From assembly GCA_021324935.1 (NCBI GenBank), contig JAJPIE010000029.1, positions 18,697-82,696 of the forward strand: DNA of 64,000 bases, in the 5' to 3' direction. A program made the position numbers and the translations under genes. The notes under the pieces were generated by a model. It was not told where the DNA came from. It saw nothing but the letters and a program-made list of their open reading frames with translations, and did no database searches. Positions 1,395 through 62,180 of the stretch are shown piece after piece. How positions within the stretch are numbered: the stretch's first letter is position 1; the number at the start of each line of letters is the position of its first letter. The stretch comes from Acidobacteriota bacterium. GTDB lineage: Bacteria; Acidobacteriota; Terriglobia; Acidiferrales; UBA7541.

Positions 1395-1586
1395 ATGAGC
1401 TGCCGGGATACTATCCATTTGATTTGCATGTATTTAGAGGGCAAGCTTTCGCCAAGCGTGCAGGACGAAATCGAACACCACTTGGAAAGCTGCGCGGATT
1501 GCCGCTTGGTTTTGGACGCCGCCACGACTACGCTTGACCGGTATTTCGGCCAGCCGAAAGAAGCCGCGGATTCGCAAGCGGCCTGA
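1395..1586 (+). CDS. Small zf-HC2 (anti-sigma-type zinc-binding) protein
   Basis: MSCRDTIHLICMYLEGKLS...HHLESCADC contains the HxxxCxxC ZAS motif. RBS GAGGGAG precedes ATG 1395. The ORF track starts at GTG 1371. Confidence 0.75.
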   Translation: MSCRDTIHLICMYLEGKLSPSVQDEIEHHLESCADCRLVLDAATTTLDRYFGQPKEAADSQAA

Positions 1587-1620
1587 ACTGCGGTCTAACT
1601 TATTTATCCGGAATGGATTA

Positions 1621-1659
1621 TGAGCATGGAGGAAGATTTCCTCCGTGCTCAAATTTTTT
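1621..1659 (+). terminator. Rho-independent terminator
   Basis: 14-bp stem TGAGCATGGAGGAA / TTCCTCCGTGCTCA (one G-U pair) followed by AATTTTTT. Confidence 0.75.
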
Positions 1660-1718
1660 GCAGCGGCTCTGTGAAGATCCTGTGGATGACATGAGACTCC
1701 CCTGTAAAAATTCCCTTT

Positions 1719-1781
1719 GAGGAAGGCAAGCTGTAATCTTTACTAGTACTAGTACCTTCATGACCAATCTTTGCCTTCCTC
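1719..1781. repeat. 11-bp inverted repeat enclosing a 14-bp palindrome
   Basis: GAGGAAGGCAA (1719-1729) and TTGCCTTCCTC (1771-1781) flank TACTAGTACTAGTA (1741-1754). Confidence 0.7.
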
Positions 1782-1907
1782 TTGAATCCACCCAACTTAC
1801 TTTTTTTCAGATGATTACGGTTCTTGCGGCACGGGAAGTAACTTTGGCGCTGCGGGTGCGCACTGCTTGATCACACGGCAAACGAGCCGCAAAAGGAGAT
1901 GACGTAC

Positions 1908-2759
1908 ATGAGCGAGTTTCAGGATTCGAATACCCAAGCACCCATGCCCCGTTGGGTGGGTCTGGCGGTTGTCGCCCTGGGTGCGGCCTCGGTGCTGGGC
2001 ATCGGCGTAGGCGTGACCGCTCTGAACCAGAGCAAGAGCACGGAGCAGACACTCCAGGCTTCCCTGAAGCAGCAAAACGACGCGCTGCAACAGCGCCTGA
2101 ACAGGACAGACGAACAGAATCAGCAACTCCAGAGCGATCTGAAGGTGGTGACGGACAAGCTGAACCTGACGCAGGACGAACTGGACAAGGCCCGCAAGCA
2201 GTCGAGGGCCACAGTTGTCGCCTACGACAAGAAGCTGAGCGGGCTTGAAACGAATGTGAATTCGCAACTGGCCACCAAGGCCAGCACGGACGACGTCAAC
2301 AAGCTGAGCGGCGACGTGTCGGGAGTGAAGAACGACCTCGACGCGACGAAGGGCCGCCTGGACCGCGCGACCGGTGACATGGGCGTGATGAGCGGCTTGA
2401 TCGCCCGCAATCACGACGATCTGGAAGAACTCAAGCGCCGCGGCGACCGCAACTACTATGAATTCACGATCAACAAGGCCAAGACGCCGCAGCACGTGGG
2501 ACCGGTGGCTATTGCGCTGAACAAGACGGACTCCAAGAAGTCGAAGTACACCATCACGGTCCTGGCGGATGACAAGTCCATCGAAAAGAAGGACAAGACC
2601 GCTGGAGAACCCGTGCAGTTCTACGTGAAGGGCGCGGCGCGCATCGCACCCTATGAAATCGTTGTCTTCGACGTGAACAAGAACCAGATCACCGGCTATC
2701 TGTCCACGCCAAAGACGGCTGGCGCGGCGGCATCCGCGAGCAACAACTCCGGACAGTAA
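1908..2759 (+). CDS. Hypothetical membrane-anchored coiled-coil protein
   Basis: One N-terminal TM segment (WVGLAVVALGAASVLGIGVGV), a long Q/K/D-rich heptad region, then a beta-rich C-domain (RRGDRNYYEFTI...). ATG 1908 fits RBS AGGAG better than ATG 1899. Confidence 0.75.
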   Translation: MSEFQDSNTQAPMPRWVGLAVVALGAASVLGIGVGVTALNQSKSTEQTLQASLKQQNDALQQRLNRTDEQNQQLQSDLKVVTDKLNLTQDELDKARKQSRATVVAYDKKLSGLETNVNSQLATKASTDDVNKLSGDVSGVKNDLDATKGRLDRATGDMGVMSGLIARNHDDLEELKRRGDRNYYEFTINKAKTPQHVGPVAIALNKTDSKKSKYTITVLADDKSIEKKDKTAGEPVQFYVKGAARIAPYEIVVFDVNKNQITGYLSTPKTAGAAASASNNSGQ

Positions 2760-2800
2760 CTTGTTCTGTGAGCAGAAGTTACTCCTTGATAGCCTGAGGT

Positions 2801-2834
2801 ACGGGGAGGATCCAGAGAGGCCTCCCCGTTTTTT
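2801..2834 (+). terminator. Rho-independent terminator
   Basis: ACGGGGAGG / CCTCCCCGT stem plus T-run. Confidence 0.75.
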
Positions 2835-2958
2835 CGCGGGGACCCGAATTTGCCACATCCAAGTGCGGGTCTGGACACGTAATCAATAGTTGTGACACCC
2901 TAGGAGGCGCCCTGACGGGGGATCGCAAGTGAAGCTGAAATTCAGGAGGGGATGGAAA

Positions 2959-3279
2959 ATGAAAGTTAAATTCGCAGCTGGATTGGCACTGTCACTCTGC
3001 GCCGCAGTTCTCGCGCTTGGAGCCGATGGGAGCTGGACGGGCTACATTTCCGACAGCGCTTGTGGCGCCAAAGGAGCAAACGAAAAGCACGCGGCTTGCG
3101 CAGCAAAGTGCGTGAACGAAAAGGGAGCAAAGTACGTATTCGTCAACGATGCGGACCACAAAGTCTACAACATTGACGATCAGAAGGCCGTTGCCGCCCA
3201 TGCCGGCCACCACGTGGTGGTGAAGGGCACAGTCAGCGGCGACGATCTGAAGCTCACCGGACTGGAAATGGCCAAGTAA
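2959..3279 (+). CDS. Small secreted Cys-containing protein of unknown function
   Basis: Signal peptide MKVKFAAGLALSLCAAVLALGA, then WTGYISDSACG...HAACAAKC...VVVKGT. RBS AGGAGG. Confidence 0.8.
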   Translation: MKVKFAAGLALSLCAAVLALGADGSWTGYISDSACGAKGANEKHAACAAKCVNEKGAKYVFVNDADHKVYNIDDQKAVAAHAGHHVVVKGTVSGDDLKLTGLEMAK

Positions 3280-3306
3280 CTTCCGCAACATTTAATTATG
3301 CAAACG

Positions 3307-3336
3307 GGGCACGACTCTGATCGTGCCCTTTTTTTT
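3307..3336 (+). terminator. Rho-independent terminator
   Basis: GGGCACGA / TCGTGCCC stem plus T8. Confidence 0.8.
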
Positions 3337-3474
3337 CGATCCCATGGTCTCTGCTTTTGTCTTTCCAACGCCCGGCTCTCAATGCCTTCTGATTTCCCTC
3401 AAGCATTTCGCTTCCACTTGCTCACAAGTGATATAAAAGTTGCTGCGGTGATTTTCGAGAGAAGAGGAACCTGA

Positions 3475-6400
3475 ATGCGGGCCTCGCGAACACTGGGTAT
3501 CGTCCTATTTCTCTTGCTGATCGCTCCAGGGGCACTTTCCGCGCAGGACTTTTCCGGGGCAGTGATCTGGTCGGAGGCCGGATTGCCTGCTGGGGATTCT
3601 GCAGCGCCGCCGCCGGATTTCCTGGCGAGGGCATTGCCCAAGGCGCGATTGGTCCCAACCGGGCAACTCGCGGCACAACTGGAAGATCTCAAAGCAGAGC
3701 TTCTGGTTCTGCCTCAAGGTTCGGCAGTGCCGGAGGCTGCGTGGAACGCCATCCGTGCTTATTTGCAAAGGGGCGGGAACTTGCTGGTTCTAGGCGGCCG
3801 GCCGTTCACACGTTCGGCATACCACGACACAAGTGGCTGGCACTTGCGCGATTTTTCGGTGCGGTTCCTGCATCCGCTGTTGATCGACCAATATCAGACT
3901 ACTCCGGGATCAGCTGGTGAATCGTTCTTCAGCAACCCGGAAATTCCGCTGCAGCTTCCCAGGTTCAGTTGGCAACGAGCTTTCAGCCCGGTGATCCGGC
4001 TGAGCACGAACGCCGTTTACAATCGCGGCGGCTCGACGGGCTTTCTCGATGCACGGCTGGATCCGCTGGCGTGGGGTGAGATCGATGGCAGGCGAATTTC
4101 CGTGCCGATCGAACAAATCGACCATATTTCTTCGGGCTTTGATGGCGGCCGGTGGATATTTGTGTCGGCTGAGCTGCCGGCGGATTTTTACACTTCAGCC
4201 GAAGCAGGCAGCCTGCTGCGCACTCTCGCTTTGCGCGCCATGGAGGGCGCGCTGGATTTTTCCGTGCGCCCGGTCTTGCCGCTCTATCTTCCCGGCGAAC
4301 CAGTGGAACTGGAGACGAATTTCCGTGCCTGGCGGAAGGGCATCACGATCGCAAGGGTGCAGGTAACTTGCTACCCTGAGGATCATCCGGACGAAAGGCA
4401 AACGCTAACGATCGCGCTGCCGAGCTCAACAGTGGCGTTACTGCCAGCCCCGGCGCAAAAAGGACTGCACATCCTTGAAGCAGGATTGATGGAAGGTTCG
4501 CAAGTTCTGGCGATTTATCATTCCGCCTTTTGGATCCGCGATGAAGAGTATCTGCGCAGCGGACCGCACCTGAGCGTCAACGCCGACTATTTCCTGTTGA
4601 ACGGGAAGCCACTCGCGATTGTGGGCACAACGTATATGTCGAGTGAGGTGCAGCGGCTCTATTTCGACCATCCCAATGTCTACGTATGGAATCGGGATCT
4701 GGCGCAAATCCACCAGGCAGGGCTCAACATGCTGCGCACCGGCTGGTGGACCGGTTGGGACAGAATTTGCGATGAAACGGGGCGCCCCTACGAGCGTACA
4801 CTCCGCACGCTGGAAGCGTACCTGATGACGGCGCGAAAATACGGCCTTCCCGTGCAATTCAATTTTTTTGCGTTCCTGCCGGATGTCTTGGGCGGCGCAA
4901 ACGCATATTTGGACCCCGAGGCAGTGCGGCGGCAGCAAAATCTGATACGTGGGGTGGCTGGTCGCTTTCACGATGTTCCGTATCTCGCCTGGGACCTGAT
5001 CAATGAACCGAGTTTTTCGAGCCATTTGTGGACCATGCGTCCAAACGGGGACTGGATCGAGCAGGCCGCATGGAACGAGTGGCTCGCCAGGCGTTATCCG
5101 GACCAAGCGGCATTGGCGGCGGCGTGGAATGTTCCCGAAGGATCGGTGCAATTTCCGGTCTCGTTGCCCTCGGAGGAAGCGTTTTCGGCACGAGGAATTT
5201 ACGCGGGCGCGAATTCCCTGCGGGTCTACGACTACTATCTTTTCGCGCAGGAAAAATTCGCCGAGTGGGTGCGCGGAATGCGCGACGCCGCGCGGGAGGT
5301 GGGATCGACGCAGCCAATCACGGTCGGACAAGACGAAGGAGGGAATGTGGACCGCCTGTCGCCGGCGTATTTTGTCCCGTACGTCAACTTCACGACCACC
5401 CATTCCTGGTGGCAGAATGATGCGCTGCTGTGGGATTCCCTGGTGGCCAAACAACCGGGCGTGGCGATGCTGGTTCAGGAAACCGGCTTGCAGCGTGAAC
5501 TTACGTTGGAAGAAATTGCGCGGCGCACTCCGGAGCAGGAAGCGGCACTGTTCGAGCGAAAATTTGTGCTCTCTTTCGTGGCGGGCTCCGGCGCGATCGA
5601 ATGGCTATGGAACTCCAATTCGTATATGACGGAGAGCAACGAGACGCCGATTGGAGCCCTGCGCCCGGATGGCACAGAAAAGCCGGAAGCAACGGTGCTG
5701 CGCAACCTGGCGAAGTTTGGCGCCTCTGTATCAGCGTATTTACAGGAACCCAAGGCGCCGGAAATCGCGGTGGTCACATCGCAGACAACGCAGTATTCCG
5801 TGCTGAACAACCTACAAATCACCGCTCAGCAGAACTCGATTCGAGCCCTCAGTTATCGACTCCAGCAACCGTGTTATTTGATCGCGGAAAATCAAATTGC
5901 GAAGCTAGGCGCACCGAAGCTGGTGATTCTTCCTTCGGCGCTGGCGCTGCAGGAAAGGACCTGGCAGGCATTGCTGGCTTACGTGCGGAACGGCGGCAAT
6001 TTGCTGGTGAGCGGCCCCGCGGCCCGCGACGAACATTGGCATCCGATCGATCGGCTCTCGCCGCTCGGCGCGAAAGCCACGCTGGAGCCTCTGACGATGC
6101 ACACCGCGGGGGTGGACTCACCGCCACAGAGTCCGGCATTTGATTTCGACCAGCAGATGCAGCTTCTGGCCGAGTATTGGAAATTCGCAGATGGAGCAGA
6201 GAAAAAGGAGCTAGTCGTCGGCAAAGGGAAGATTTTCCTGGAGGCATATCCCGTCGAACTCGCGCGGGATTCGCTTTTCGCCGCCGGTATCTATGAACCG
6301 GTGCTGACAAGTCTCGGGATATCCTCCCCCTACCGCGTGCATGGTCGTGTTTCGCCTGGAGTTCTGATCTATCCAATCGAACTTCGGGATGCCGTGCTTT

Positions 6401-13310: not shown

Positions 13311-16300
13311 TCAGGCATCGACCGACGGCTTCCCGCGCCCTATCCGTATGCTGTCCAGATAATAGTGAATCGTGGGTGTAAATACCAGCGAAAGGACGAT
13401 CGAGCTGAGCAGCCCGCCGATAACGGCAATGGCCAATGGCTGCAGCATCTGCGAGCCGGAACCGATGGCCAGGGCCAGCGGCAACATGCCCGCTATGGTC
13501 GCCAAAGCGGTCATGGCGATCGGCCGCAAACGGCGGCGGCCCGCTTGAATCATGGCTTCTTCCGGGGTGAAGCCCAGTTGCCGGAAGCGGTGGTCCGCGT
13601 CGAGGAGCAAAATTCCATTCTTTGCCACAATGCCGATCACCATGATCATGCCCATAAAGGAAGCTACGTTGAATGTGATGCCGGTGATGAGCAAGGCAAG
13701 GAAACCGCCAAAGGTCGAGAGAAGTGCCGAACCCAAAATTGCGGTTGGTGCAGTGAACGAGCGGAATTCGAACAACAACACGGCGAAGAGGAGGAGAAGG
13801 GCCAGCAGAAAGACCGTCGCGAGGTCGCGGAAGGATTTCTGTTGTTCCTCGTACAGGCCGCCATATTCAACGCGGATGCTCGAGGGAAGGTGCATGGCGG
13901 CCACTGCTTTCTGGATTGAGGCCATGCCCGTCCCAAGATCCACTCCCTCGAAGCGGGCGGTGACTTGCACGAGCCGCTGCAGGTTTTCACGGCGAATTTC
14001 GGTCTGGCCGGGATCGGAGGTGATGGTGGCGAGGCTTGCGAGGGTCGCGGTCTTGCCCGTGGAGCTCGTCAGGAGCGTGTTGCCCATGCGATCGAGCGAA
14101 GCGCGGTTCTGCTCGGGAAATCGCACGCGGATGGTGTACATGCGGTCGTTCAGAACCACAGGGGACGCCGCGGGCTCTCCTTCCAGCACGGCCGAGGCGT
14201 CCAAAGCCACTTCCTCCGACGAAAACCCCGAGCGCGCAGCCACAACAGGATTCACCTGATAGGTGACCGCGGGTCCGCTGATGGTATTTTCAATTCCGTC
14301 CAGCACATCGACCACGTGCGGCAGTTTTTGGATCGTTTCGGCAACACGCGGCGCCGTTTGGTTGAGCAACTTGCCGTCCTGGCAAAATAGCTTGATGACC
14401 ACGGGCTCGGGGGCGCTGGTCAAGTCGCCGATCATGTCCTGCAACACCTGGACGAATTCCACGTCGACGGAGGGCTCGGTCTTTTTGATTTCGGCGCGAA
14501 TGTCGGAAATGATGTCGTCAATGCCGCGCTTGCGATCCCTTTTCAACTTGACGGTGAAATCGCCGGTATTCGCTTCGGTCACGGCCACAAGACCAAGTTG
14601 CATCCCGGTGCGGCGTGAAGTGTTTTCCACTTCGGGCATCGAACGGATGATCTCCTCGACATGCAGCAGCATGCGGTTGGATTCCGCCAGCGAGCTGCCG
14701 GGGGGAGTGTAGTAATCGAGAATGAAGCCGCCTTCATCCATCTCCGGCAGCAGATCCGAACCCAAGGCGTTGTAGCAAAAGTAGGAGAGGACGACGATAG
14801 CCAGCGAGGAGACGACGAGCACGACGGGGCGGTGCACAATGGCCTGCATCGCGCGGCCATAGAAATTCACCACCTTGCCGAATAATCCGGAGAGATGCTC
14901 CTCTTCCGCCGCAAGCAAAGCCGCAACGTCGTGTTCGCCGCCTTGTTTCCCGCTTCCGCCGGCTGTTTCCTTCCGGCGGACGAGGTATTGGCTCAGAGTC
15001 GGCGTCCAGGTGAGGGCCAAAAGCAGCGAGCTGAGAAGTGAAACCGTCATGGTAATGGCCAACGCGCGGAAAAAGCTGCCGGTCACCCCGGTTACAGAAA
15101 TCAATGGCAGGAACACGACGATCGGCGTGATGGTGGAACCGATCAGCGGTACGGTGATTTCTTTCAGGGCGCTCTGAATCGCCTGGAAACGTGATTCGCC
15201 CGCGTCGCGGTGCAGCACGATGTTTTCGAGTACGACGATGGCATCGTCAATCACCAAGCCGACCGCGGCGGCTAAGCCGCCTAAGGTCATCAGGTTGAAA
15301 CTTTGCCCCACAAGCCACAGGGCAATCAGGGTCAGAGACAAGGTCACTGGGATCACAAGACCCGCAACCAGGGAGGAACCCCAATCGCGCAAGAAGAGCA
15401 CCAGAATCGCGGCAGACAAAATAATTCCCAGCAGCACCGCGTCGCGCACGCTGGAGATGGACTCTTGCACGATGGTGGACTGATCGTAGAAGGGCTCAAG
15501 ATGCACGCCGGGCGGGAGCGTGGGCTGGAGTTCGGCAATGCGTTCATGCACCAATTGCGCGACGTCCAGGGCGTTGCTTTGCGGCTGGCGGATGACGCTC
15601 AAAAGGACAGCAGGCTTCCCGTTGGCAGTCACGATGGTGTACACGGGAGCTTCCGAGGGCCCGACTTTCGCGATGTCGCCAACGCGAATGGGCACGCCAT
15701 TCGCCGAACTCTTCACGACGATCTGCCCTATCTCCTCCGGCGTTCGTACCTGGCCGCTGACCAGGCCCAGGACAAGCTGATGCTCATGCTCGAGCAAACC
15801 GGGCGAGTCAATCAAGTTGGTGCGCCGGATGGCTTCGAGAATATCGGGCACGGTAATACCAGCGGCCTGCAGCCGGGCAGGATCCGGTGTGACCTGAAAC
15901 TCCGGCACGCGCCCACCCTGCACAATCACCGTTGCCACGCCGTTCAAACGGTTGATACGCGGCTTCAAATCGTAGGTGGCAATTTCCCAAAGCTTGGTTT
16001 GGGAAACGCTATCGGAAGTCAGGCTGTAGCCAAGAATCGGAAAGGTAGCGAAAGTCAGACGATGCGTCTCGAGCTTTGCCGTCGGCGGGAGTTCGGGCTG
16101 AAGGCGCGCCACGACGGCGTCAACGCGCTGGAGCGTCAGAATCATGTCCGAGCCCCAGTCAAAGAACAAATCCACTTCCGCGGAGCCGCGGCTAGTGATC
16201 GAGGTCACTTTGGTGAGCCCCGGCACGCTGTTGACGGCCTCTTCGATCGGCTTGGTCACGGTGACCAGCATCTGGTCGATCGGCGCGACGCCATTGTCCA

Positions 16301-16499
16301 CCCCAACCACAATGCGGGGGAAATCGGTGTTAGGGAAAACGGCCACGGGAATTTTGGCCGCCAGATAGATTCCCACGAGGGCAAAGCTCACCAACAGAAA
16401 TAAAATCGGGCTGGAGAGCTTGCTGAACCAGGGCTGTTCCTCCTTGCCCTGTGCCGCCCGGTTTTTCTTTTCCTGAGACTCTTCGGAACCCAATGCCAT
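13311..16499 (-). CDS. RND efflux permease (AcrB/CzcA superfamily)
   Basis: 1062 aa with two sets of TM helices and proton-relay motifs GLVIDDAIVVLEN, KNGILL and RRRLRPIAMT. Confidence 0.95.
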   Translation of the reverse strand: MALGSEESQEKKNRAAQGKEEQPWFSKLSSPILFLLVSFALVGIYLAAKIPVAVFPNTDFPRIVVGVDNGVAPIDQMLVTVTKPIEEAVNSVPGLTKVTSITSRGSAEVDLFFDWGSDMILTLQRVDAVVARLQPELPPTAKLETHRLTFATFPILGYSLTSDSVSQTKLWEIATYDLKPRINRLNGVATVIVQGGRVPEFQVTPDPARLQAAGITVPDILEAIRRTNLIDSPGLLEHEHQLVLGLVSGQVRTPEEIGQIVVKSSANGVPIRVGDIAKVGPSEAPVYTIVTANGKPAVLLSVIRQPQSNALDVAQLVHERIAELQPTLPPGVHLEPFYDQSTIVQESISSVRDAVLLGIILSAAILVLFLRDWGSSLVAGLVIPVTLSLTLIALWLVGQSFNLMTLGGLAAAVGLVIDDAIVVLENIVLHRDAGESRFQAIQSALKEITVPLIGSTITPIVVFLPLISVTGVTGSFFRALAITMTVSLLSSLLLALTWTPTLSQYLVRRKETAGGSGKQGGEHDVAALLAAEEEHLSGLFGKVVNFYGRAMQAIVHRPVVLVVSSLAIVVLSYFCYNALGSDLLPEMDEGGFILDYYTPPGSSLAESNRMLLHVEEIIRSMPEVENTSRRTGMQLGLVAVTEANTGDFTVKLKRDRKRGIDDIISDIRAEIKKTEPSVDVEFVQVLQDMIGDLTSAPEPVVIKLFCQDGKLLNQTAPRVAETIQKLPHVVDVLDGIENTISGPAVTYQVNPVVAARSGFSSEEVALDASAVLEGEPAASPVVLNDRMYTIRVRFPEQNRASLDRMGNTLLTSSTGKTATLASLATITSDPGQTEIRRENLQRLVQVTARFEGVDLGTGMASIQKAVAAMHLPSSIRVEYGGLYEEQQKSFRDLATVFLLALLLLFAVLLFEFRSFTAPTAILGSALLSTFGGFLALLITGITFNVASFMGMIMVIGIVAKNGILLLDADHRFRQLGFTPEEAMIQAGRRRLRPIAMTALATIAGMLPLALAIGSGSQMLQPLAIAVIGGLLSSIVLSLVFTPTIHYYLDSIRIGRGKPSVDA

Positions 16500-16505
16500 G
16501 CGCCG

Positions 16506-17870
16506 CTACTCCTTGTCCTTCGCCGGCTTGTCGTCGGGAGCAGCCTTATCGTCCGCGGCGCCGCCCTTGTCATCCGCTCCGCCCGCGTCTTGCCCCTTTT
16601 CAGCGGGAGGCGCGGCCTCGATCTGAATCTGCGTCCCATCCGGAAGCGCGTAGCCGCCGAGGGTGATTACGGAATCGTTTTCCTTCACGCCCGATTCGAT
16701 CTGCGCAAGCTCCTTGTTCTTGATGCCGACTTTCACCTTGGTGAGGTGAGCCTTCTTGTCCGATCCGGCCAGCATCACGTAATCGCCGGCATCTTCGGAG
16801 TTGTACACAGCGGAAGCAGGCACTACCAGCGCGTTGTCTTCGCTCTTGGCAATCACATTGACGCGGGCGTTCATGCCCGGCTTCAGCGCGGCGTTGGGCT
16901 TGTTGGAAACCACCCAAACTTCGACCGTTGTGCTTCCGGGATCAAGCGCCGGACTGACCAAGGTCACTTTCGCCTTAATCGGCTCTTCGAGGCCGGGGAG
17001 TTCGATCTCCGCCTCGTTTCCGACCTTCAGCAACACGGCTTCGGACTGCGCGACATGGGCTTTTGCAATCAGCTTCGAGGTATTCATCACCGTGAGCAGC
17101 GGCACATTTGCCGTCGCCAGCTCGCCCTCATACTGCGGGCGGTCCGTGACCACGCCGTCAATCGGACTGCGAATTTCCGAGTAGCTCAACTGCGCCTTGG
17201 CGTTCAAGTATTTGCCCTTCGCGGCGGAGAGCTGGCCGCTCGCCGATTTCAGCGTTTCCTGTTTGCCGATTTTCTGCAGATCTGCAAGCTGTTTTTGGGC
17301 TTGTTCGTTGGTGCTGCGCGCCTGCGCCAGAGCCACCACGGCCGCGTCGTAATCCCGGCGCGGCAGCGCGCCTTCGTCAAAAAGCTGTTTGCGCGCGTCG
17401 TAGATTTTTTGCTGTGCGTCAAAAGCCGCCTGCGCGGCCGCGGCATCCAGCTCGGCCTTCTGAATCTCTTCCGGCAGGCTTGCGCCCGTGGTCGTGGCGT
17501 AATTGGCTTCGGCTTGCTCGAATTCGCCCTTGCTCTGTTCCGCCTGGCCGGAGAGGTCCGCATTCTCCAGCAGCGCAAGCAACTGGCCTTGCTTCACCTT
17601 GCTCCCGCGCTGCACGTAAAACTTTGCGATCGTCGAAGTGATCTTGGGCGTGATGACGGCCTGTTCCAGCGGGTAGACGACGGCATCGGAACTTACTTCC
17701 AGTTCGATCGGCCCGCGTTTTGCCGGAGTCACCTGCACGGTCACCAGCGGTGTGGGCTCTTTTTCCGCGCCGCCGCAGCCATAGAGCAGCGCCGCGCCCG
17801 CCAGCAGCCACGCGCCTCGCGACATCCCGCGAAATCCCCGTGCTACAAAATCACGATTGCCATTCTTCAT
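16506..17870 (-). CDS. RND membrane fusion protein (periplasmic adaptor)
   Basis: Lipobox-like LLYGC, hairpin coiled coil, IRSPIDGVV, LKPGM. D/K-rich low-complexity tail. Confidence 0.93.
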   Translation of the reverse strand: MKNGNRDFVARGFRGMSRGAWLLAGAALLYGCGGAEKEPTPLVTVQVTPAKRGPIELEVSSDAVVYPLEQAVITPKITSTIAKFYVQRGSKVKQGQLLALLENADLSGQAEQSKGEFEQAEANYATTTGASLPEEIQKAELDAAAAQAAFDAQQKIYDARKQLFDEGALPRRDYDAAVVALAQARSTNEQAQKQLADLQKIGKQETLKSASGQLSAAKGKYLNAKAQLSYSEIRSPIDGVVTDRPQYEGELATANVPLLTVMNTSKLIAKAHVAQSEAVLLKVGNEAEIELPGLEEPIKAKVTLVSPALDPGSTTVEVWVVSNKPNAALKPGMNARVNVIAKSEDNALVVPASAVYNSEDAGDYVMLAGSDKKAHLTKVKVGIKNKELAQIESGVKENDSVITLGGYALPDGTQIQIEAAPPAEKGQDAGGADDKGGAADDKAAPDDKPAKDKE

Positions 17871-19273
17871 GGTGTTGTCAGCACCCCTGTCAATGTCTGC
17901 AGATTCGCCAGCGCCACCCGGTAACGCACGGCGCCGTCCTGGTAAGCCGCGTTGGCTTGCGCAAAGGTCGTCTGCGCGTCCACCACTTCCAAAACCGTCG
18001 CTTCCCCGCCCTGATAGCGCATGGTCGTCAGGCGTAAACTGTCAGCGGCAAGTTCCGAGGAACGCTGAAGCCCCGCAAGCTCGTTCAGGGAAGTCTCCGC
18101 TTCGGCGTAGAGCGAGCGCATTTCCGCGAGCAGTTTTCGTTGCGCGAAGGAAAGTTCGCGTTTGGACTGATCGCGCTTGAGCTGGGCTACGCGCACCTGG
18201 CTTTGCGTGGCGCCCCAGTTCCAAAGGGGAAGGCTGAGCGTGGCAAGATAGGATGCGCCGAGGTTGCTGAATTTGCTTCCATTGGGATTTGTCCCGTTCA
18301 TCGCATAGCGCTCGGCATCAATACCATAGAAATAATCGAAAGTGACGGAAGGCAGGTAACCCGCCCAAGCCCCGATGAGTTCGTGGCCCGCAGCTTGTGT
18401 ATCGGCCAGGGCGGCGCGGATATCCGGGTTGTTCTGCGCGGCCTGCGCTTCGAATTCCGGCTGCGGCGGCAACGCGACATTCGCGTGCAAATCGTCCGCG
18501 AGTTCGTAATTGTCGGTGAAGTCCGGGAAAAGCAGCACCGCAAGATCCAGCCTGGCATTCAGGAGTTGCAATTTCGCTTCCTGCAACTGGCGCCGCCGGT
18601 CCTGCGCCTGCAACTCGGCCTTGATGACGTCGGAGTGCGCCACTTCCCCGCCCTTTTCGAGCGACTGCGTGAGTTGAAAGAATTTTTCGCCTTCATCGGC
18701 GGTGCGCTCCGCCGCTTGCAGCTTCTTCTCCGCGGCGGCAGCCGCGAAGTAGTCCTGGACGACGGTCGCCACCAAGCCGCGCGCCGCGACTTCTGCGCGC
18801 GCCTTGGCCGCGGCCGCGGACGCCGCTGCACTACGGTACGATTCCCAGGCAGCGACACTGAGGGCCTCGTGCACATCTCCCTGGGCGACATATTCGTGAG
18901 GCGAATTGTTTGCGATAAACGCAATTCCCAGTTGACTGCCTGTAATTTGGGTGTAAAGAGCGGACGTGTTGAAATCGACGCTGGGCAACAGCGCGTCACG
19001 CGCCTGCGCTCGCGCCTCGCGAGCCACACCGGCATCGGTTGCCACCGCCTGGTAGGTTGGCTCATTCTTCTTCGCAAGCGCCAACGCTTCTAGCAGAGTC
19101 AACCTCACCGGCGCGCCCGGCGCGGGTTTACCGGCGGCCAATTGGACCTGCTTGGCCATCACCGCGGGTTTCGGCTGCGGTGCTTCAGGCTGCTGGGCCG
19201 CGGATTCCCCCGAAAAAGAGAGTCCCGCGGCGCAAAGCAGCAGAATCAATTCGACATGATGTTTCCGATGCAA
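17867..19273 (-). CDS. TolC-family outer membrane efflux protein
   Basis: LTLLEALALA..NEP, two OEP repeats, RYQGGEATVLEVVDAQ. Confidence 0.92.
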   Translation of the reverse strand: MHRKHHVELILLLCAAGLSFSGESAAQQPEAPQPKPAVMAKQVQLAAGKPAPGAPVRLTLLEALALAKKNEPTYQAVATDAGVAREARAQARDALLPSVDFNTSALYTQITGSQLGIAFIANNSPHEYVAQGDVHEALSVAAWESYRSAAASAAAAKARAEVAARGLVATVVQDYFAAAAAEKKLQAAERTADEGEKFFQLTQSLEKGGEVAHSDVIKAELQAQDRRRQLQEAKLQLLNARLDLAVLLFPDFTDNYELADDLHANVALPPQPEFEAQAAQNNPDIRAALADTQAAGHELIGAWAGYLPSVTFDYFYGIDAERYAMNGTNPNGSKFSNLGASYLATLSLPLWNWGATQSQVRVAQLKRDQSKRELSFAQRKLLAEMRSLYAEAETSLNELAGLQRSSELAADSLRLTTMRYQGGEATVLEVVDAQTTFAQANAAYQDGAVRYRVALANLQTLTGVLTTP

Positions 19274-19316
19274 AATGCTTCCCTCGAAAATTTATTTCGG
19301 AATGCCGGTTTCGGAC

Positions 19317-19688
19317 TTAGAGATTCGACTTGCCGGACTCCTGCTGCATTTCTTTCGATTCGCTCGCCGCGCTTTCCTTCGTCACACTGACGATCGAACC
19401 GTTGATGGCGTTCACCTGCACTTCGGTGATGTCTTTCCGGCCGGCAGGCCGAATGTCGAACGAGTAGACCAGCTTGCCGTGCTCTTTTTCAAGCTCTTCC
19501 TCGTCGATGACGCCTGGCGCCTTTTTCAGGGCGGCCGCCCGCGCCTCCTCCACGGAAATTTTGGCGTCCTTCCTGAGCGCGGGGGGAATTTTCGATTTTT
19601 TCGGAGTTTGCGTCTGCGCGCCAGAGGCCACGCAAATTCCCGCTGCAAAAGCCATGCAGAAAATCGCTCGTGTCCATGCAATTCGCAT
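19317..19688 (-). CDS. PepSY domain protein
   Basis: Signal peptide, then ISVEEARAAALKKAPG...ELEKEHGKLVYSFDI...EVQVNAINGSIV. ATG 19688. The ORF track extends upstream to 19850. Confidence 0.85.
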   Translation of the reverse strand: MRIAWTRAIFCMAFAAGICVASGAQTQTPKKSKIPPALRKDAKISVEEARAAALKKAPGVIDEEELEKEHGKLVYSFDIRPAGRKDITEVQVNAINGSIVSVTKESAASESKEMQQESGKSNL

Positions 19689-19785
19689 TTTGCTTCTTCC
19701 CGCCGGCGCCGCTCCATCCCAATTCAGGAAGCGGTTCGGCTCCTGTTTATAAGCCGAGATTAGAAAGGGTGAGATAAACGTACGA

Positions 19786-21258
19786 TTAATGGCCGGAAGG
19801 GCTCCCGGCAGGTGCCGGAAGGTAGGCCGTGAATGTGGATCCCGAAGCATCCGAGCGGGTCAGTTCCAGCCGGCCGTGATGCGCCTCGGCAATCCAGCGG
19901 GCGATGGACAAACCAAGTCCTGCGCCGCCGGTATCGCCTTCGCTTCGCGAGCGCGCTTTGTCCGCCCGGAAAAACCGCTCGAAAATTCTCGACTGTAGTT
20001 CCGCGGGAATCCCGGCTCCAGTGTCGATAACGCGCAGGACGTAATCGTTAGCCTCACGGCAGCATTCCACGAGGACTTTCCCGCCCGCGGGGGTGTACTT
20101 GATCGCGTTGTCAAGAAGATTGAGCAGCATCCGCCGCAACAAATCTTCGTCGGCTTGTACTGGAAGCTCCGGCTGGATAGTGGATGACAGCGAAATCCCC
20201 TTGGAGATTGCCAAAGAGCGCGTGCGCCGGAGGACGTCCGCCGTTAGTTCATCCAGATAAAGTTCCCGGATCTGCAAGGGGTACTGGCCGGCATCGGCCC
20301 GTGTGAGGGTGAAAAGATCTTCGATGATATGGGCCAGGCGCTGTGATTCGTCGCGGAGGATGCTCAATGTTTCGCGATATTCCTCGGCGGATCGCGCCGG
20401 CCGGGAGAGCGTCACTTCCGTTTCGCCTTGCAAAATCGCGACCGGGGTTCGCAGTTCGTGGGAAGCATCGGCCACGAAACGCCGCTGTTGTTCGAAGGAC
20501 TTTTCCAGCCGATCCAGCAATTCATTGAAGGAGAGGGCCAGGGTGCCCAATTCGTCGCGCGGATTGGAAACTTTCAAGCGATCGCTAAAGCGCGCTGCGC
20601 CCATTCCCCTCGCCTGCCGCGCCATATCCGCCACGGGCGCCAGGCTCTTTCTGGCCAAAAAATATCCGCCGGCGCTGGCTAGAAGGAGGGCGATCGGAAT
20701 GATCCAGAAGAAAATGTTCCGGATGTCCTCCATCATCTCATGTTGGGGATGAAGCGATTGCAGGACGATGAGTCTGGTGGCGCGATCATCTTGAGATAGC
20801 GGCCGCGCATAGCCGCGGAAACCGTTCCTTCCGCCTGGCACATCCTGATAGACCCCTCCTGCCGTTTTCAGCGGGCTTTGTGCCAGTCTCTGAAACGCTG
20901 CCGAGTCAAACATGTCCGGAGCAAATTTCTCGGCGCCACCCCGCACAGCCGGCAAATCCAAAGAGCTCAACAGGATTTTGCCGCCGCCATCAACGATTAC
21001 GTACACCACATCGCGGAAGCGATGTTCGAGCATTGCTTCGCGCGCGGCGTTTTTGATTCCGTCGGGTCCTTTGTCGTCCTTCAGTTCGGCGTTGAAAGTT
21101 GCAATGAAAGTCTCGCTCTGCTCCGAGAGATTGCTGTCGGTCCGCTCCAAACTGTTCCGCCAATAAAGAAAATAGGTGAGACCGGCGAGCAAAATCAGAA
21201 ACAACCCGAAAAGGGCGCTATACCAGACCGTCATGCGCGAGCGGACCGAGTCAAGCAT
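19786..21258 (-). CDS. HAMP sensor histidine kinase, second copy
   Basis: ADASHELRTPV, NLLDNAIKYT, DTGAGI, GAGLGLSI. ATG 21258 overlaps the end of the regulator gene. Confidence 0.92.
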   Translation of the reverse strand: MLDSVRSRMTVWYSALFGLFLILLAGLTYFLYWRNSLERTDSNLSEQSETFIATFNAELKDDKGPDGIKNAAREAMLEHRFRDVVYVIVDGGGKILLSSLDLPAVRGGAEKFAPDMFDSAAFQRLAQSPLKTAGGVYQDVPGGRNGFRGYARPLSQDDRATRLIVLQSLHPQHEMMEDIRNIFFWIIPIALLLASAGGYFLARKSLAPVADMARQARGMGAARFSDRLKVSNPRDELGTLALSFNELLDRLEKSFEQQRRFVADASHELRTPVAILQGETEVTLSRPARSAEEYRETLSILRDESQRLAHIIEDLFTLTRADAGQYPLQIRELYLDELTADVLRRTRSLAISKGISLSSTIQPELPVQADEDLLRRMLLNLLDNAIKYTPAGGKVLVECCREANDYVLRVIDTGAGIPAELQSRIFERFFRADKARSRSEGDTGGAGLGLSIARWIAEAHHGRLELTRSDASGSTFTAYLPAPAGSPSGH

Positions 21259-21982
21259 GGGATTTTTTGATGCCGGACGGGCTTTGCCCGGAAGCCTTTT
21301 TTGCGGACGACTCGTTTTCACAGAGCACGTAGCCGCTTCCACGTCGCGTTTGCAGCAGGGGCTTCCCGCCTTCGTCGCCCAGTTTGCGGCGCAAGCGATT
21401 CACGTAGACCTCAATAAGGTTGGAAAACGGGTCGAAGGTTTCATCCCAGACATGCTCGGCAATCTCCGAGCGCCCGATTACGCGCCCGGCATTGCGCGCG
21501 AAATATTCGAGCAGGGCATATTCCTTCGCAGTCAGGGGAATGGAGCGGTTACCTCGCTTTGCGGTCTGCGAGGCGGTATCGAGTTCCAGATCGCCTACGA
21601 TGATACGCGGCGGCCGCAAATCGCTTGGGCGGCGCAGCAGCGCGCGCAGCCGCGCCAGCAACTCCCGAAATTCGAAAGGCTTGGTTAGGTAGTCGTCGGC
21701 GCCGGAATCGAGGCCTGTGATGCGATCGTCCACGCCGTCGCGAGCGGTCAGCATGAGGATGGGCGTCCGCTTGCCGGCCGCGCGAATCGCTTGGCACACG
21801 GCGAGTCCATCCATGCCGGGAATCATGATGTCCAAAATGATCAGGTCGTAATCGTTGATCTCCGTCTGGTAAACAGCATCATTCCCGTTCTCCGCGATGT
21901 CCACGGCATACGACTCTTCCCGCAGGCCTTTTGCTACGAATCGTGCGATTCGCGCGTCGTCTTCGACCAGGAGCACTCGCAT
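21251..21982 (-). CDS. OmpR-family response regulator, second copy
   Basis: MRVLLVEDD, LIILDIMIP, GADDYLTKPF, NLIEVYVNRLRRKL, TRRGSGY. Confidence 0.95.
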   Translation of the reverse strand: MRVLLVEDDARIARFVAKGLREESYAVDIAENGNDAVYQTEINDYDLIILDIMIPGMDGLAVCQAIRAAGKRTPILMLTARDGVDDRITGLDSGADDYLTKPFEFRELLARLRALLRRPSDLRPPRIIVGDLELDTASQTAKRGNRSIPLTAKEYALLEYFARNAGRVIGRSEIAEHVWDETFDPFSNLIEVYVNRLRRKLGDEGGKPLLQTRRGSGYVLCENESSAKKASGQSPSGIKKSHA

Positions 21983-22067
21983 GCACGTATCATACGGCAA
22001 TTTCACAGCGGGGGAGCAAATGCCGCCCGGCGTCGCGCTGGGGCGGATGCAAGGAAGGAGTAGTCAC

Positions 22068-23387
22068 TTATTTGTGGCGAAATTCGATAGGGGCACGCAC
22101 ACGGTCCAGAGGAAAAACCTGTATTTGCCACTTCACGGGCACTGAAGTGGGCACAAAGCACATGGTCTTATCGCAAGCCTGGTATTCCAGTTTGCCAGTG
22201 ATGGAGATGATCTTTCCATCTTTTCCCAATCCGCTCCAGAACGACGAACTCGTGTTTACATTCACCTCCTGACTGACCCGAAAGGCTCCTTCGTACACTG
22301 GCACTTTTTCCTTGATTGCCGGCAGGTAGAGAATTTGCGACGCCGGGTACATCGGAGAACTGAGCAGGAAATCCGGCGAAGAATCGATCACGAGTTTGAC
22401 CGGCTTGTAACCCTGAGTCCCCGGGGCGTAGACGTGCACATCTGGAGGCAATTCCACCGCCGCGTAAACCGTGATGCGCGTCCCAGGTACGCCGGTACGA
22501 TCCGATTGCTCGAGGGACAGCTTCAGGTGTGGCGCCTCGATCGTGCCGACCACTTCCTGTCCCAGTTCCGGGAATAACTTGGAGAGAATGCTGTTACCCG
22601 TCAGACGTTCCCGATATCTCGGGTCAAAGAATTTTTCCTTGATGATTCCGTCAGGACCGATGAAAAAATAACCAGGTCGCGCGAACCCCTTTTGCATGCC
22701 CGTAGCTTCGTGATTGAAGACCCCGTAGGCCCGGATCGTGCTGGAATCCGGATCCGCGAGCATGGGATAAGTGATCTTGAAGCGACCCGCGAAGAACTTC
22801 AGGATGTCTTGCGAATCGTAGCTAATTGCCGCGAACTTGAGTCCCTGCTTTTCGAATCTTGGGATTGCACTTTGCAGCTGGACCAGCTGCCCTTTGCAGA
22901 AGGGTCACCAGTCCGCCGAACGGAAAAACAGCAGCACTGTGCCGTTCTTTCCCTTCAGCGATTCGAGCGTTTGTGCATTGCCAAATTCGTCCTTCAGCGA
23001 AAAATCGGGGGCTTTTTGGCCAACCTCAAGGCCGATGGCCATGGGCCCGCAGGACGTGACCTGGATCGTGTCGTCGTCGAGCGTGCCGTGAACTGTGACT
23101 GTGTCGCCCAGCTTCCCGGTGACTTTGTTTTGTGGCGACAGGCTGTACATCACACGGTTGGTGTCGTCGTAAAGCGCAATCTCCGCGCCAGGCACGTTCT
23201 TGAGGCATTCCGGCGACTCGCTGAACGCCTCATCCGCGTTACACGCGCTGGTCACCAGCACTCCGGACCAGAATCCGGGCTTGGATGTAGCGCCTTGATT
23301 CGCGAACGTGCTCGCGGCGAAAAAAACAACGGCAACCGCCGCCAGGCAGAGAATTTTCGAAGTGGACGTAAGCCGCAACGGTGTCAC
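22068..23387 (-). CDS. Exported selenoprotein (439 aa, Sec161): small Cys domain + AhpC/TSA thioredoxin-fold UxxC domain + DsbD-alpha-like domain
   Basis: ORFs 22905-23387 and 22068-22763 are in the same frame with no other stop between them. The read-through sequence is FFRSADW-UGA-PFCKGQLVQLQ...FAAISYDS...ITYPMLADPDS. UGA at 22905-22907 occupies the first Cys position of a CxxC motif and is followed by a SECIS-like hairpin. Sec signal peptide at the N-terminus and YQACDKTMC near the C-terminus. Confidence 0.85.
22866..22898 (-). promoter_or_regulatory. Bacterial SECIS-like element
   Basis: mRNA after UGA: CCCUUC-UGCA-AAGG-GCAGCUG-GUC-CAGCUGC-AAAG-UGCA. Perfect 7-bp upper stem, apical GGUC starting 21 nt after UGA, and a 4-bp lower stem. 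Confidence 0.75.
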
Positions 23388-61118: not shown

Positions 61119-61667
61119 ATGATGGGGAGCGCGACGAGTAGTCGATTTGGAATCACGGTTTCATTGGCAGCAGCCCTTCTTTTTTTGTGTCCAGCCACGC
61201 GGGCGCAGCAGTCCGTGAAAATGGTGCCCGACAATCCCAGCCCGCATCCCGCTCCCGAGCAGCCAATTCCTTACAGCCACAAACAGCATCTGGCTTTCAG
61301 CCTGCCGTGCAAACGCTGTCACACAAATCCAGAACCCGGCAACTTAATGACGTTCCCTGCGACCTCGGTTTGCATGCAATGCCATGCGTCGATCGCGAAA
61401 GACAAAACGTCTATTCAAAAGCTGGCGTCTTACGCCGCTTCAAACCAACCCATTCCGTGGGTACGCGTCTATAAAGTCCTGCCCGGCGTCGCTTGGAGCC
61501 ATCGCCCGCACCTCGATGCAGGAGTAAAATGTGAGACGTGCCACGGCGAGGTCGCCGAGATGGCCACCATGTCGGAAGTCACCAGTGTCACCACGATGTA
61601 CAGTTGCCTGCACTGCCACGAAATGAATCACGCGAAATCTTCCTGCGACACTTGCCACAAACGCTGA
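61119..61667 (+). CDS. Periplasmic pentaheme c-type cytochrome (class III / ActA-like)
   Basis: Signal peptide, five CxxCH motifs (CKRCH, CMQCH, CETCH, CLHCH, CDTCH), plus PIPYSHKQH, IPWVRVY and WSHRPH. Confidence 0.9.
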   Translation: MMGSATSSRFGITVSLAAALLFLCPATRAQQSVKMVPDNPSPHPAPEQPIPYSHKQHLAFSLPCKRCHTNPEPGNLMTFPATSVCMQCHASIAKDKTSIQKLASYAASNQPIPWVRVYKVLPGVAWSHRPHLDAGVKCETCHGEVAEMATMSEVTSVTTMYSCLHCHEMNHAKSSCDTCHKR

Positions 61668-61700: not shown

Positions 61701-62180
61701 ATGGCCGGAAGTCTTCAGTTGGAAATCAATGGGAGGCGTGTTTCGGTCAGCTATCCTCCCGAGACGCCTCTCCTCTATGTGTTGCGGGACGAATTAGGCC
61801 TGACTGGCACGAAGTATGGCTGCGGTGAGGGCATGTGTGGCGCTTGCACCGTGCTGATCGGAGGAACGGCGCGAAGGTCGTGCCAGATTCCCGTAAGCGC
61901 GGCAGCATCGCGGCCCGTCACAACCATTGAGGGCCTGGAAAAAGACGGCGCGCTACATCCCGTACAACAGGCATTTCTCGATGCCGGCGCATTTCAATGC
62001 GCTTACTGCACCTCCGGCATGATCATGAGCAGCGTGTCCTTGCTGAATGCAAATCCGCATCCCACCCGTGAGCAGATCGTGCAGGCGATGCAGGGGAATG
62101 TCTGCCGCTGCGGAACACATCCGCGCATTATCGAGGCCATCGAGAAAGCAGCCGGCCAGATGCAGGGGCGTGCCAAGTGA
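61701..62180 (+). CDS. (2Fe-2S)-binding small subunit of a molybdenum hydroxylase (CoxS/IorA-like)
   Basis: GTKYGCGEGMCGACTV, QCAYCTSG, VCRCGT. Confidence 0.93.
   Translation: MAGSLQLEINGRRVSVSYPPETPLLYVLRDELGLTGTKYGCGEGMCGACTVLIGGTARRSCQIPVSAAASRPVTTIEGLEKDGALHPVQQAFLDAGAFQCAYCTSGMIMSSVSLLNANPHPTREQIVQAMQGNVCRCGTHPRIIEAIEKAAGQMQGRAK

Follow-up and report, generated by a model that had tools for sequence, protein, structure and literature searches.

A predicted exported UxxC selenoprotein with a DsbD-alpha-like domain, annotated as two gene fragments in soil Acidobacteriota

Bacterial selenoproteins in which an AhpC/TSA domain contains a UxxC motif entered the catalogues in the mid-2000s, under the names 'Prx-like thiol:disulfide oxidoreductase' or 'Prx-like 1' (PMC1794560, PMC2398784), and the same class is listed in a 2026 inventory of 119 selenoprotein families (PMC13188914, Table 1). 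The bacterial selenocysteine insertion sequence (bSECIS) has been modelled as a hairpin with a loop of 3-9 nt containing G[G/U], a stem of 4-16 bp, a spacing of 16-37 nt and a minimum free energy (MFE) of -7.5 kcal/mol or lower (PMC13188914), and in Caulobacter a DsbD-like protein feeds a periplasmic peroxide-reducing pathway that runs from ScsB through TlpA to PprX (PMC3322552). Here we describe a locus in a 64,000-nt stretch of contig JAJPIE010000029.1 from an Acidobacteriota bacterium (the window, to which all coordinates refer). The minus-strand interval 22068-23387 very probably holds one real selenoprotein gene, in which the UGA at codon 161 (U161) encodes selenocysteine (Sec). Related DNA loci are given L-numbers, homologous proteins P-numbers and sequencing runs X-numbers.

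Two open reading frames (ORFs) form a single frame at this locus. The first, 22905-23387, starts with GTG, spans 160 amino acids and is terminated by a TGA at 22907-22905 on the minus strand; past this codon the frame stays open until a TAA at 22070-22068. The resulting product of 439 amino acids carries the motif FFRSADW-U-PFCKGQL within the wider context TVLLFFRSADW-U-PFCKGQLVQLQ. The original prediction, made from the DNA letters of the window, had joined the two ORFs across the TGA in the same way and taken them for one Sec-containing thiol oxidoreductase with a signal peptide. The joined frame is confirmed, and the reading as a selenoprotein with a predicted signal peptide is supported by the Sec/Cys alternation, the SECIS and the domain that spans the TGA.

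The TGA is genuine and not a sequencing error, because the same sequence is present in independent assemblies and runs. The 1,320-nt gene, TGA included, shows no difference among four independent assemblies (two NCBI metagenome-assembled genomes (MAGs), one JGI and one ENA metagenome), and a coverage check at 22905-22907 found the TGA without any difference in contigs of four runs from three studies of soil and mine metagenomes, at depths of 15-105x. A global reassignment of TGA (code 4 or 25) was considered and dismissed: TGA closes 17 of the 33 long ORFs in the window, more than any other ordinary stop, which rules out global recoding, and relatives carry Cys, not Trp or Gly, at the homologous residue.

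Codon 161 alternates between Sec and Cys across a large family. A protein search returned more than 1,900 homologues, full-length or fragment, that share a layout of three domains: a small Cys domain, the UxxC fold and a DsbD-alpha-like domain. The original prediction had outlined this architecture; it is common in the lineage and not the unusual arrangement it had seemed. Full-length members have 430-440 amino acids and can be aligned end to end. At the redox motif they read WCP[YF]C or W-TGA-P[FY]C, and the flanks SADW-x-P[FY]CK are invariant, so that the UGA stands where homologues have Cys, between conserved sequence on both sides. Relatives at greater distance (58-63% identity) show WCPYC at the motif, and an odd W occupies residue 161 in the nearest JGI entries. 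Among species-representative genomes, a scan yielded 80 loci, mainly from Acidobacteriota MAGs labelled Acidoferrum, Acidiferrales, Sulfotelmatobacter and Terriglobales, and codon 161 is TGA in 80/80. A metagenome scan seeded with a Cys-form relative added 78 loci with a readable motif, where the codon is TGA in 57, TGC in 15 and TGT in 6 (21 Cys). The proposed check for Cys/UGA alternation at position 161 was thus positive, with 139 TGA and 123 Cys forms across the family as sampled, and a rough neighbour-joining tree of these sequences contains two large Sec clades and at least two Sec/Cys switches.

Purifying selection acts on both sides of the TGA. When the window gene is compared with ten relatives, the nonsynonymous rate (dN) is 0.05-0.17 against a synonymous rate (dS) of at least 0.95 where estimable, and codons 116-160 and 162-280 behave alike. 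The ratio dN/dS stays far below 1 past the TGA, including the 47 codons that precede the first ATG of the second ORF, which argues that this stretch is translated in the same frame.

A few family members depart from this pattern or carry unexpected labels. In P0014, a close homologue (L002:45-1364, ENA contig k141_2097352), GAA (Glu) replaces the Sec TGA, so that TGGGAACC stands against TGGTGACC; this gene still has a SECIS-like hairpin and directly adjoins selA-selB, and the Glu variant could be an inactive form or an assembly artefact. P0013, a JGI entry with 17 member sequences and seen at the level of protein sequence, reads ADW-S-PFCK, with Ser in place of Sec or Cys and an SxxC arrangement as in BCP-type peroxiredoxins. 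Eight Sec-form loci (L009, L011, L022, L024, L025, L058, L062 and L080), some on short contigs, come from MAGs with various non-acidobacterial labels, namely Limnocylindrales, Methylomirabilota, Cybelea, Udaeobacter, Dormiibacterota, Formivibrio and Alphaproteobacteria. These may be mis-binned acidobacterial contigs rather than true occurrences outside the phylum, and for the few short contigs mis-binning is probable.

The nucleotides that follow the UGA form a predicted SECIS within the coding sequence. With an MFE of -16.5 kcal/mol, the 45 nt from the UGA fold into a GUC loop on an upper stem of 7 bp (GCAGCUG/CAGCUGC), with a lower stem of 4 bp beneath it. In 82 Sec forms the post-UGA nucleotides read TGACCNTTCTGCAARGGGCAGCTGGTCCAGCTGCAAAG and are conserved even at fourfold-degenerate sites. 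RNAalifold gives a consensus with a 6-bp upper stem (+18..+23/+29..+34), a GGUCC loop and a 2-bp lower stem; in a separate count on a 7+2-bp version, 98% of the cells are paired and the covariation score is matched by 0 of 500 shuffles. Compensatory changes occur at three pairs, with G-C replaced by A-U in five sequences, C-G by U-A in one and G-C by C-G in one. Measured against the bSECIS model, the element has a G-GUC-C loop, a stem of 6-7 bp, a spacing of 20-21 nt and an MFE of -11.2 kcal/mol for the core or -16.5 kcal/mol for the 45 nt, every value lying inside the published limits. An Rfam scan of the whole window reported no family at the gathering score; bSECIS elements are not modelled in Rfam.

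Comparison of the Sec with the Cys forms makes a more informative control, given that both conserve the peptide QL(V/I)QL and that the sequence CAGCUG is self-complementary. The wobble position of the Gly codon (+18) is G in 78/82 Sec forms versus 8/21 Cys forms, and that of the Leu codon (+24) is G in 82/82 versus 7/21. The loop nucleotides G25-U26 never vary among the Sec forms; in the Cys forms position 25 is A in 21/21, because the residue there is Ile and not Val. In a representative Cys-form sequence the hairpin does not form.

The full frame encodes a predicted signal peptide and three domains (Table 1). All homologues possess an equivalent hydrophobic N-terminus, and we infer that the protein is exported and that its mature form is periplasmic. 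In the small N-terminal domain W40, G42, C49, D52, F55, E57 and C61 are invariant or nearly so; the sole Pfam match is DUF5818, below threshold, and the domain consists of beta strands in the AlphaFold2 (AF2) model of P0018, a 62%-identical Cys homologue that served for the full-length model (pTM 0.49). With Cys placed at position 161, the central domain matches Pfam AhpC-TSA (E = 2.8e-30, residues 122-251) and Redoxin (E = 3.2e-19). Profile matches in the PDB over residues 113-250 are to BCP 2cx3 (3.8e-16), AhpE (5.5e-15) and ResA (7e-11), and Foldseek searches with the central domain of the Cys-homologue model place Bcp4, AhpE and Bcp1 on top, at target TM scores of 0.83-0.86.

Despite this fold, the predicted active site differs from that of a canonical peroxiredoxin. 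Profile alignments to BCP and AhpE put U161 in the column of the S/TxxC Ser/Thr and C164 in that of the peroxidatic Cys. The original prediction had offered either the peroxidatic or the N-terminal Cys as the position of Sec; the second assignment holds, the peroxidatic Cys being the one that aligns with C164. Sec is thus predicted to be the N-terminal, attacking residue of a thioredoxin-type UxxC motif. The canonical PxxxT/SxxC motif is absent, with Sec in the Thr/Ser column and Arg156 in the Pro column, and the profile alignments put the invariant R237 one column ahead of AhpE R116 and the BCP Arg. As judged from these alignments, the central domain is peroxiredoxin-fold and not a canonical peroxiredoxin.

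The C-terminal domain combines a DsbD_N signature with an Ig-like fold. With Pfam DsbD_N (PF11412) the score is 28.8 bits (E = 1.4e-6), above the cut-off of 25, and an AF2 model of this domain, built from the true window sequence, reaches a pLDDT of 88.5. The top eight Foldseek matches of that model are nDsbD structures (E = 7e-6 to 2e-4, target TM 0.63-0.73); the list is headed by nDsbD of E. coli and of Neisseria together with the N-domain of ScsB, and 1vrs, 1jzd and 1z5y are among the top fold matches. C405 and C410 are invariant among homologues. A weak hhalign alignment (18 columns, E = 0.005) places YQAC-DKTMC on YQGCADAGFC, which brings C405 and C410 onto C103 and C109 of E. coli DsbD. 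A PDB sequence search with the profile of the C-terminal domain gave no match.

Table 1 Features of the predicted selenoprotein gene, in window coordinates.
Feature	Coordinates	Strand	Residues	Details
Complete selenoprotein coding sequence (predicted)	22068..23387	minus	1-439	440 codons = 439 aa + TAA; GTG start; one internal TGA
Predicted Sec-type signal peptide	23301..23387	minus	1-29	MTPLRLTSTSKILCLAAVAVVFFAASTFA/NQG; basic n-region, hydrophobic core, TFA cleavage motif
Small N-terminal beta-rich domain	23043..23282	minus	~36-115	Conserved Cys49 and Cys61
Peroxiredoxin-fold (AhpC/TSA, Redoxin) domain	22635..23024	minus	122-251	Spans the TGA
Sec codon UGA (predicted)	22905..22907	minus	161	TGA in 80/80 genome loci and 57/78 metagenome loci
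Redox motif U161-P-F-C164	22896..22907	minus	161-164	Homologues WCP[YF]C or W-TGA-P[FY]C
Bacterial SECIS (predicted)	22866..22898	minus		Lower stem +10..+13/+39..+42; upper stem +18..+24/+28..+34 (22874-22890); loop G-GUC-C
DsbD-alpha (DsbD_N)-like Ig-fold domain	22146..22490	minus	300-414	Cys405 (22173-22175) and Cys410 (22158-22160) in YQACDxxxC

These domain assignments suggest a mechanism for the encoded protein. The SECIS hairpin, about 20 nt past the UGA, would recruit SelB carrying Sec-tRNA(Sec), and the ribosome would decode UGA-161 as Sec. The mature periplasmic protein would then comprise the Cys-pair domain, the peroxiredoxin-fold domain with its U-P-F-C motif and the DsbD-alpha-like domain with a Cys pair of its own. 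The Sec/Cys centre, with Sec as the exposed attacking residue, would reduce an oxidant in the periplasm, which could be a peroxide or the oxidised thiol or disulfide of a protein, and this step would leave a selenenylsulfide between Sec and C164. The tethered Cys pair of the DsbD-alpha-like domain could re-reduce the selenenylsulfide and might itself be recharged by a membrane electron transporter of the DsbD, ScsB or CcdA type. To our knowledge, thioredoxin-fold proteins are the sole partners in disulfide exchange of the alpha domain of DsbD.

The role that we consider most likely, as the simplest reading of the domain analogies, is that of a terminal reductase or peroxidase of the periplasm with its own alpha-like reductant. 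A bolder version of this idea, which we advance tentatively and which may well prove wrong, is a self-contained periplasmic selenoenzyme: a Sec peroxidase or disulfide reductase hard-wired to its own DsbD-alpha adaptor, with the Sec form kept across most soil Acidiferrales and Terriglobales lineages for the advantage that selenium gives in an oxidising envelope. If this is true, the enzyme would be among the most widespread selenoproteins of soil bacteria, one of which the public protein databases show truncated ORFs only.

Electrons could also run through the same selenoprotein in the opposite direction. In DsbD, electrons pass from the gamma domain to the alpha domain and on to substrates, the alpha domain being the substrate-docking module. 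By analogy, the UxxC domain would be a DsbD-gamma-like acceptor of electrons from a membrane protein of the CcdA or DsbD-beta type and would feed the alpha-like domain, which would reduce several periplasmic partners; the protein would then be a soluble 'gamma-alpha' hub and not a terminal reductase. This order matches that of DsbD, whose structures 1vrs, 1jzd and 1z5y recur among the top fold matches, and it would give the invariant Cys pair of the alpha-like domain a place in the route. However, the redox domain is nearest to the BCP/PrxQ and AhpE peroxidases and not to DsbD-gamma or TlpA, and no CcdA or DsbD gene is linked to the family in the neighbourhoods compared. Sec is usually the residue that attacks the terminal oxidant, and such a placement also speaks against a relay function. 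We regard reverse flow as a real alternative, albeit an unlikely one, to the terminal reductase proposed above.

Several observations weigh against the selenoprotein interpretation or against parts of the proposed mechanism. The free energy of the hairpin is ordinary when set against shuffled sequence (z about -1.56 to -2), so thermodynamic strength is weak evidence here and the argument rests on conservation and covariation. The hairpin that had first been called strong is thus upheld as a consensus bSECIS with compensatory changes, while its strength had been overstated. CAGCUG is self-complementary and the peptide QL.QL is conserved in Cys forms too; part of the pairing therefore stems from the protein sequence. 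The full-length model of P0018, given its pTM of 0.49, provides no domain contacts. Peroxidase chemistry is not assured, because the motif Pro and Thr are missing and R237 lies one residue off the catalytic Arg. The 64-kb window contains no selA, selB, selD or tRNA-Sec, and ARAGORN, run on 60 of the 80 related genome loci, detected no tRNA-Sec in them; the backing for Sec machinery in this particular genome consists of covariance in coverage. No gene neighbourhood is conserved beyond the genus, and therefore no partner is named. No RNA-seq run was found to hold the gene.

The lack of Sec machinery inside the window would also fit readthrough of the UGA without selenium, in which the downstream hairpin would promote acceptance of a near-cognate tRNA (Trp or Cys) at codon 161. 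ARAGORN found no tRNA of any kind in the window, and a tblastn search of the window with SelB from L002 gave no match. Sec machinery does exist in the lineage, however. SelB with winged-helix domains is encoded 2-3 kb from the Sec-form genes in L015 and L033, and in L002 selB (1435-3345) and selA (3398-4159) lie directly beside the homologue (45-1364). We aligned contigs of four runs (X1, X2, X3 and X5) to the selB gene of L015 (L015:5659-7572). Each of the four runs contains a contig of 10-13 kb with short, correctly ordered matches to the two ends of selB, and the depths of this contig (108.8, 18.6, 14.4 and 21.5) follow those of the window contig (105.1, 17.5, 15.0 and 19.6). This suggests, as something short of proof, that the 10-13 kb contig is this organism's selB and that the organism probably carries the gene. 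With SelA and SelB beside homologues, a selB-like contig that co-varies in depth with the organism, a hairpin that fits the SelB-type consensus in detail (GGUC loop, spacing and stem) and a UGA that stands in for a catalytic Cys, which is the signature of Sec, we consider selenium-free readthrough very improbable.

A second selB contig, of about 2.3-3.7 kb, was also found in these data; it resembles the L015 selB more closely, its depths follow another pattern, and it comes from a different organism.

A pseudogene, a pair of independent genes or an assembly error, with the TGA a true stop and the downstream ORF dead or separately translated from Met209, accords with the public gene calls, every one of which splits the locus into 160 and 231 amino acids, yet it is scarcely credible and, on the comparative data, already refuted: the TGA recurs at a single codon in 139 sequences that represent 80 species or more, codons 162-208 before the first ATG of the second ORF are conserved as protein with dN/dS far below 1, a 160/209 split would halve the thioredoxin fold, and independent assemblies and runs agree on the sequence.

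Directly downstream of the selenoprotein gene, the stretch 13311-22006 (minus strand) encodes an OmpR-type response regulator, a HAMP histidine kinase and a small PepSY protein, together with an OEP/CusB-type MFP/AcrB-family RND efflux set (CzcCBA-like). Linkage to these regulator, kinase, PepSY and efflux genes is kept only in the closest relatives (L003-L013). The most widely shared neighbour cluster, present at 18/82 loci, probably represents an antisense ORF of the selenoprotein gene; no real flanking cluster exceeds 13 loci.

A scan of the window for in-frame TGA codons with coding-like GC content at third codon positions (GC3) on both sides returned junctions of adjacent genes and antisense frames only, and thus no second selenoprotein. 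At 61119-61667 and 61701-62180 (plus strand), two same-frame ORFs are split by a TGA, with a CxxCH haem-binding motif (SCDTCHKR) just before the stop; we tentatively take them for adjacent cytochrome c-like genes.

The family is systematically mis-annotated. Calls at NCBI, ENA and JGI give a 160-aa ORF without a domain and a fragment of 231-271 aa. The best 120 database matches to the C-terminal ORF (NCBI, JGI, ENA and Logan) are all truncated products of 231-271 aa, named 'hypothetical protein' or 'AhpC/TSA family/DsbC'. The JGI calls P0001-P0012 and P0015 are full-length with a false Trp at the Sec site, which may mislead motif analyses. The DNA of one such relative (L001:573-1892) has TGA at the Trp site, and the false residue arises because the short contig was gene-called under genetic code 4. 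The expectation in the original prediction that standard pipelines would divide the gene is borne out, either as ORFs of 160 and 231 amino acids or as a Trp reading under code 4.

Databases contain hundreds of such fragments; once corrected, they would bring a widespread selenoprotein into the inventory of Acidobacteriota, a phylum dominant in soil whose use of selenium is barely described. With its natural pair of Sec and Cys orthologues, the family is experimentally tractable for work on the reasons that an exported redox enzyme retains Sec, and its fusion to a DsbD-alpha-like domain suggests an electron route in the cell envelope that is open to test. The known picture of Sec decoding, and of the kinds of protein that use Sec, is unchanged; the family is a familiar type of selenoprotein that has been systematically mis-annotated.

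We found no description in the literature of the three-domain, DsbD-alpha-fused, Acidobacteriota-wide family as a selenoprotein. None of the NCBIfam selenoprotein models reaches its cut-off, the scores being 41 bits of 120 for SelL_rel_redox, 37 of 270 for PrxU and 27 of 300 for WAxxUGC_long. The 2026 inventory has a possibly related entry, 'Redoxin family protein, PF08534, UxxC, HEU0032618.1' (PMC13188914); the source paper of HEU0032618.1 describes a marine 'Prx-like 3' with only weak similarity to PF08534, which does not fit this family.

When compared with known systems, the predicted SECIS shares with that of E. coli fdhF its hairpin form, its place inside the ORF immediately behind the UGA, its apical GGUC loop and the G-U at the positions contacted by SelB. 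In contrast to fdhF, no bulged U is evident in the upper stem here, and SelB binding is putative. From the position that we take the fdhF loop to have, the loop here would lie 2 nt further from the UGA than in E. coli.

By the criteria of the papers that defined it, Pfam domain plus motif, the gene belongs to the Prx-like UxxC class, as a predicted product with a PF00578 domain (E = 2.8e-30) that contains U161-P-F-C164. It shares with Prx-like 1 the PF00578 domain, Sec in the first position of UxxC, abundant Cys homologues, a SECIS inside the coding sequence and an origin in computational prediction. Unlike Prx-like 1, the family has a predicted signal peptide and two further domains, a Cys-pair domain at the N-terminus and a DsbD-alpha-like one at the C-terminus, and it is concentrated in soil Acidobacteriota; the comparison with Prx-like 1, whose listed representatives include WP_010940744.1 (Geobacter), is by domain and motif.

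The BCP/PrxQ and AhpE peroxiredoxins (2cx3, 3hjp and 1xvw) are the best matches to the central domain in sequence and fold, with C164 on the peroxidatic Cys and an invariant Arg beside the catalytic-Arg column. They differ from it in that Sec (or Cys) here replaces the Thr/Ser of T/SxxC and Arg replaces the motif Pro, and the site is therefore best described as a predicted thioredoxin-type U/CxxC site and not as that of a canonical peroxiredoxin.

With the alpha domains of DsbD and ScsB, the C-terminal domain shares the DsbD_N Pfam signature and the nDsbD/ScsB fold; its YQxC...C motif, which the weak hhalign match places on C103/C109, may correspond to that of DsbD. While the alpha domain of DsbD is joined to a membrane beta domain, the domain here is soluble and fused to a peroxiredoxin-fold domain, and its cysteines are spaced Cx4C rather than Cx5C. 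The pathway from ScsB-alpha through TlpA to PprX (PMC3322552) is periplasmic, as is predicted for the protein described here, and provides a precedent for an alpha-type domain that supplies a peroxiredoxin pathway.

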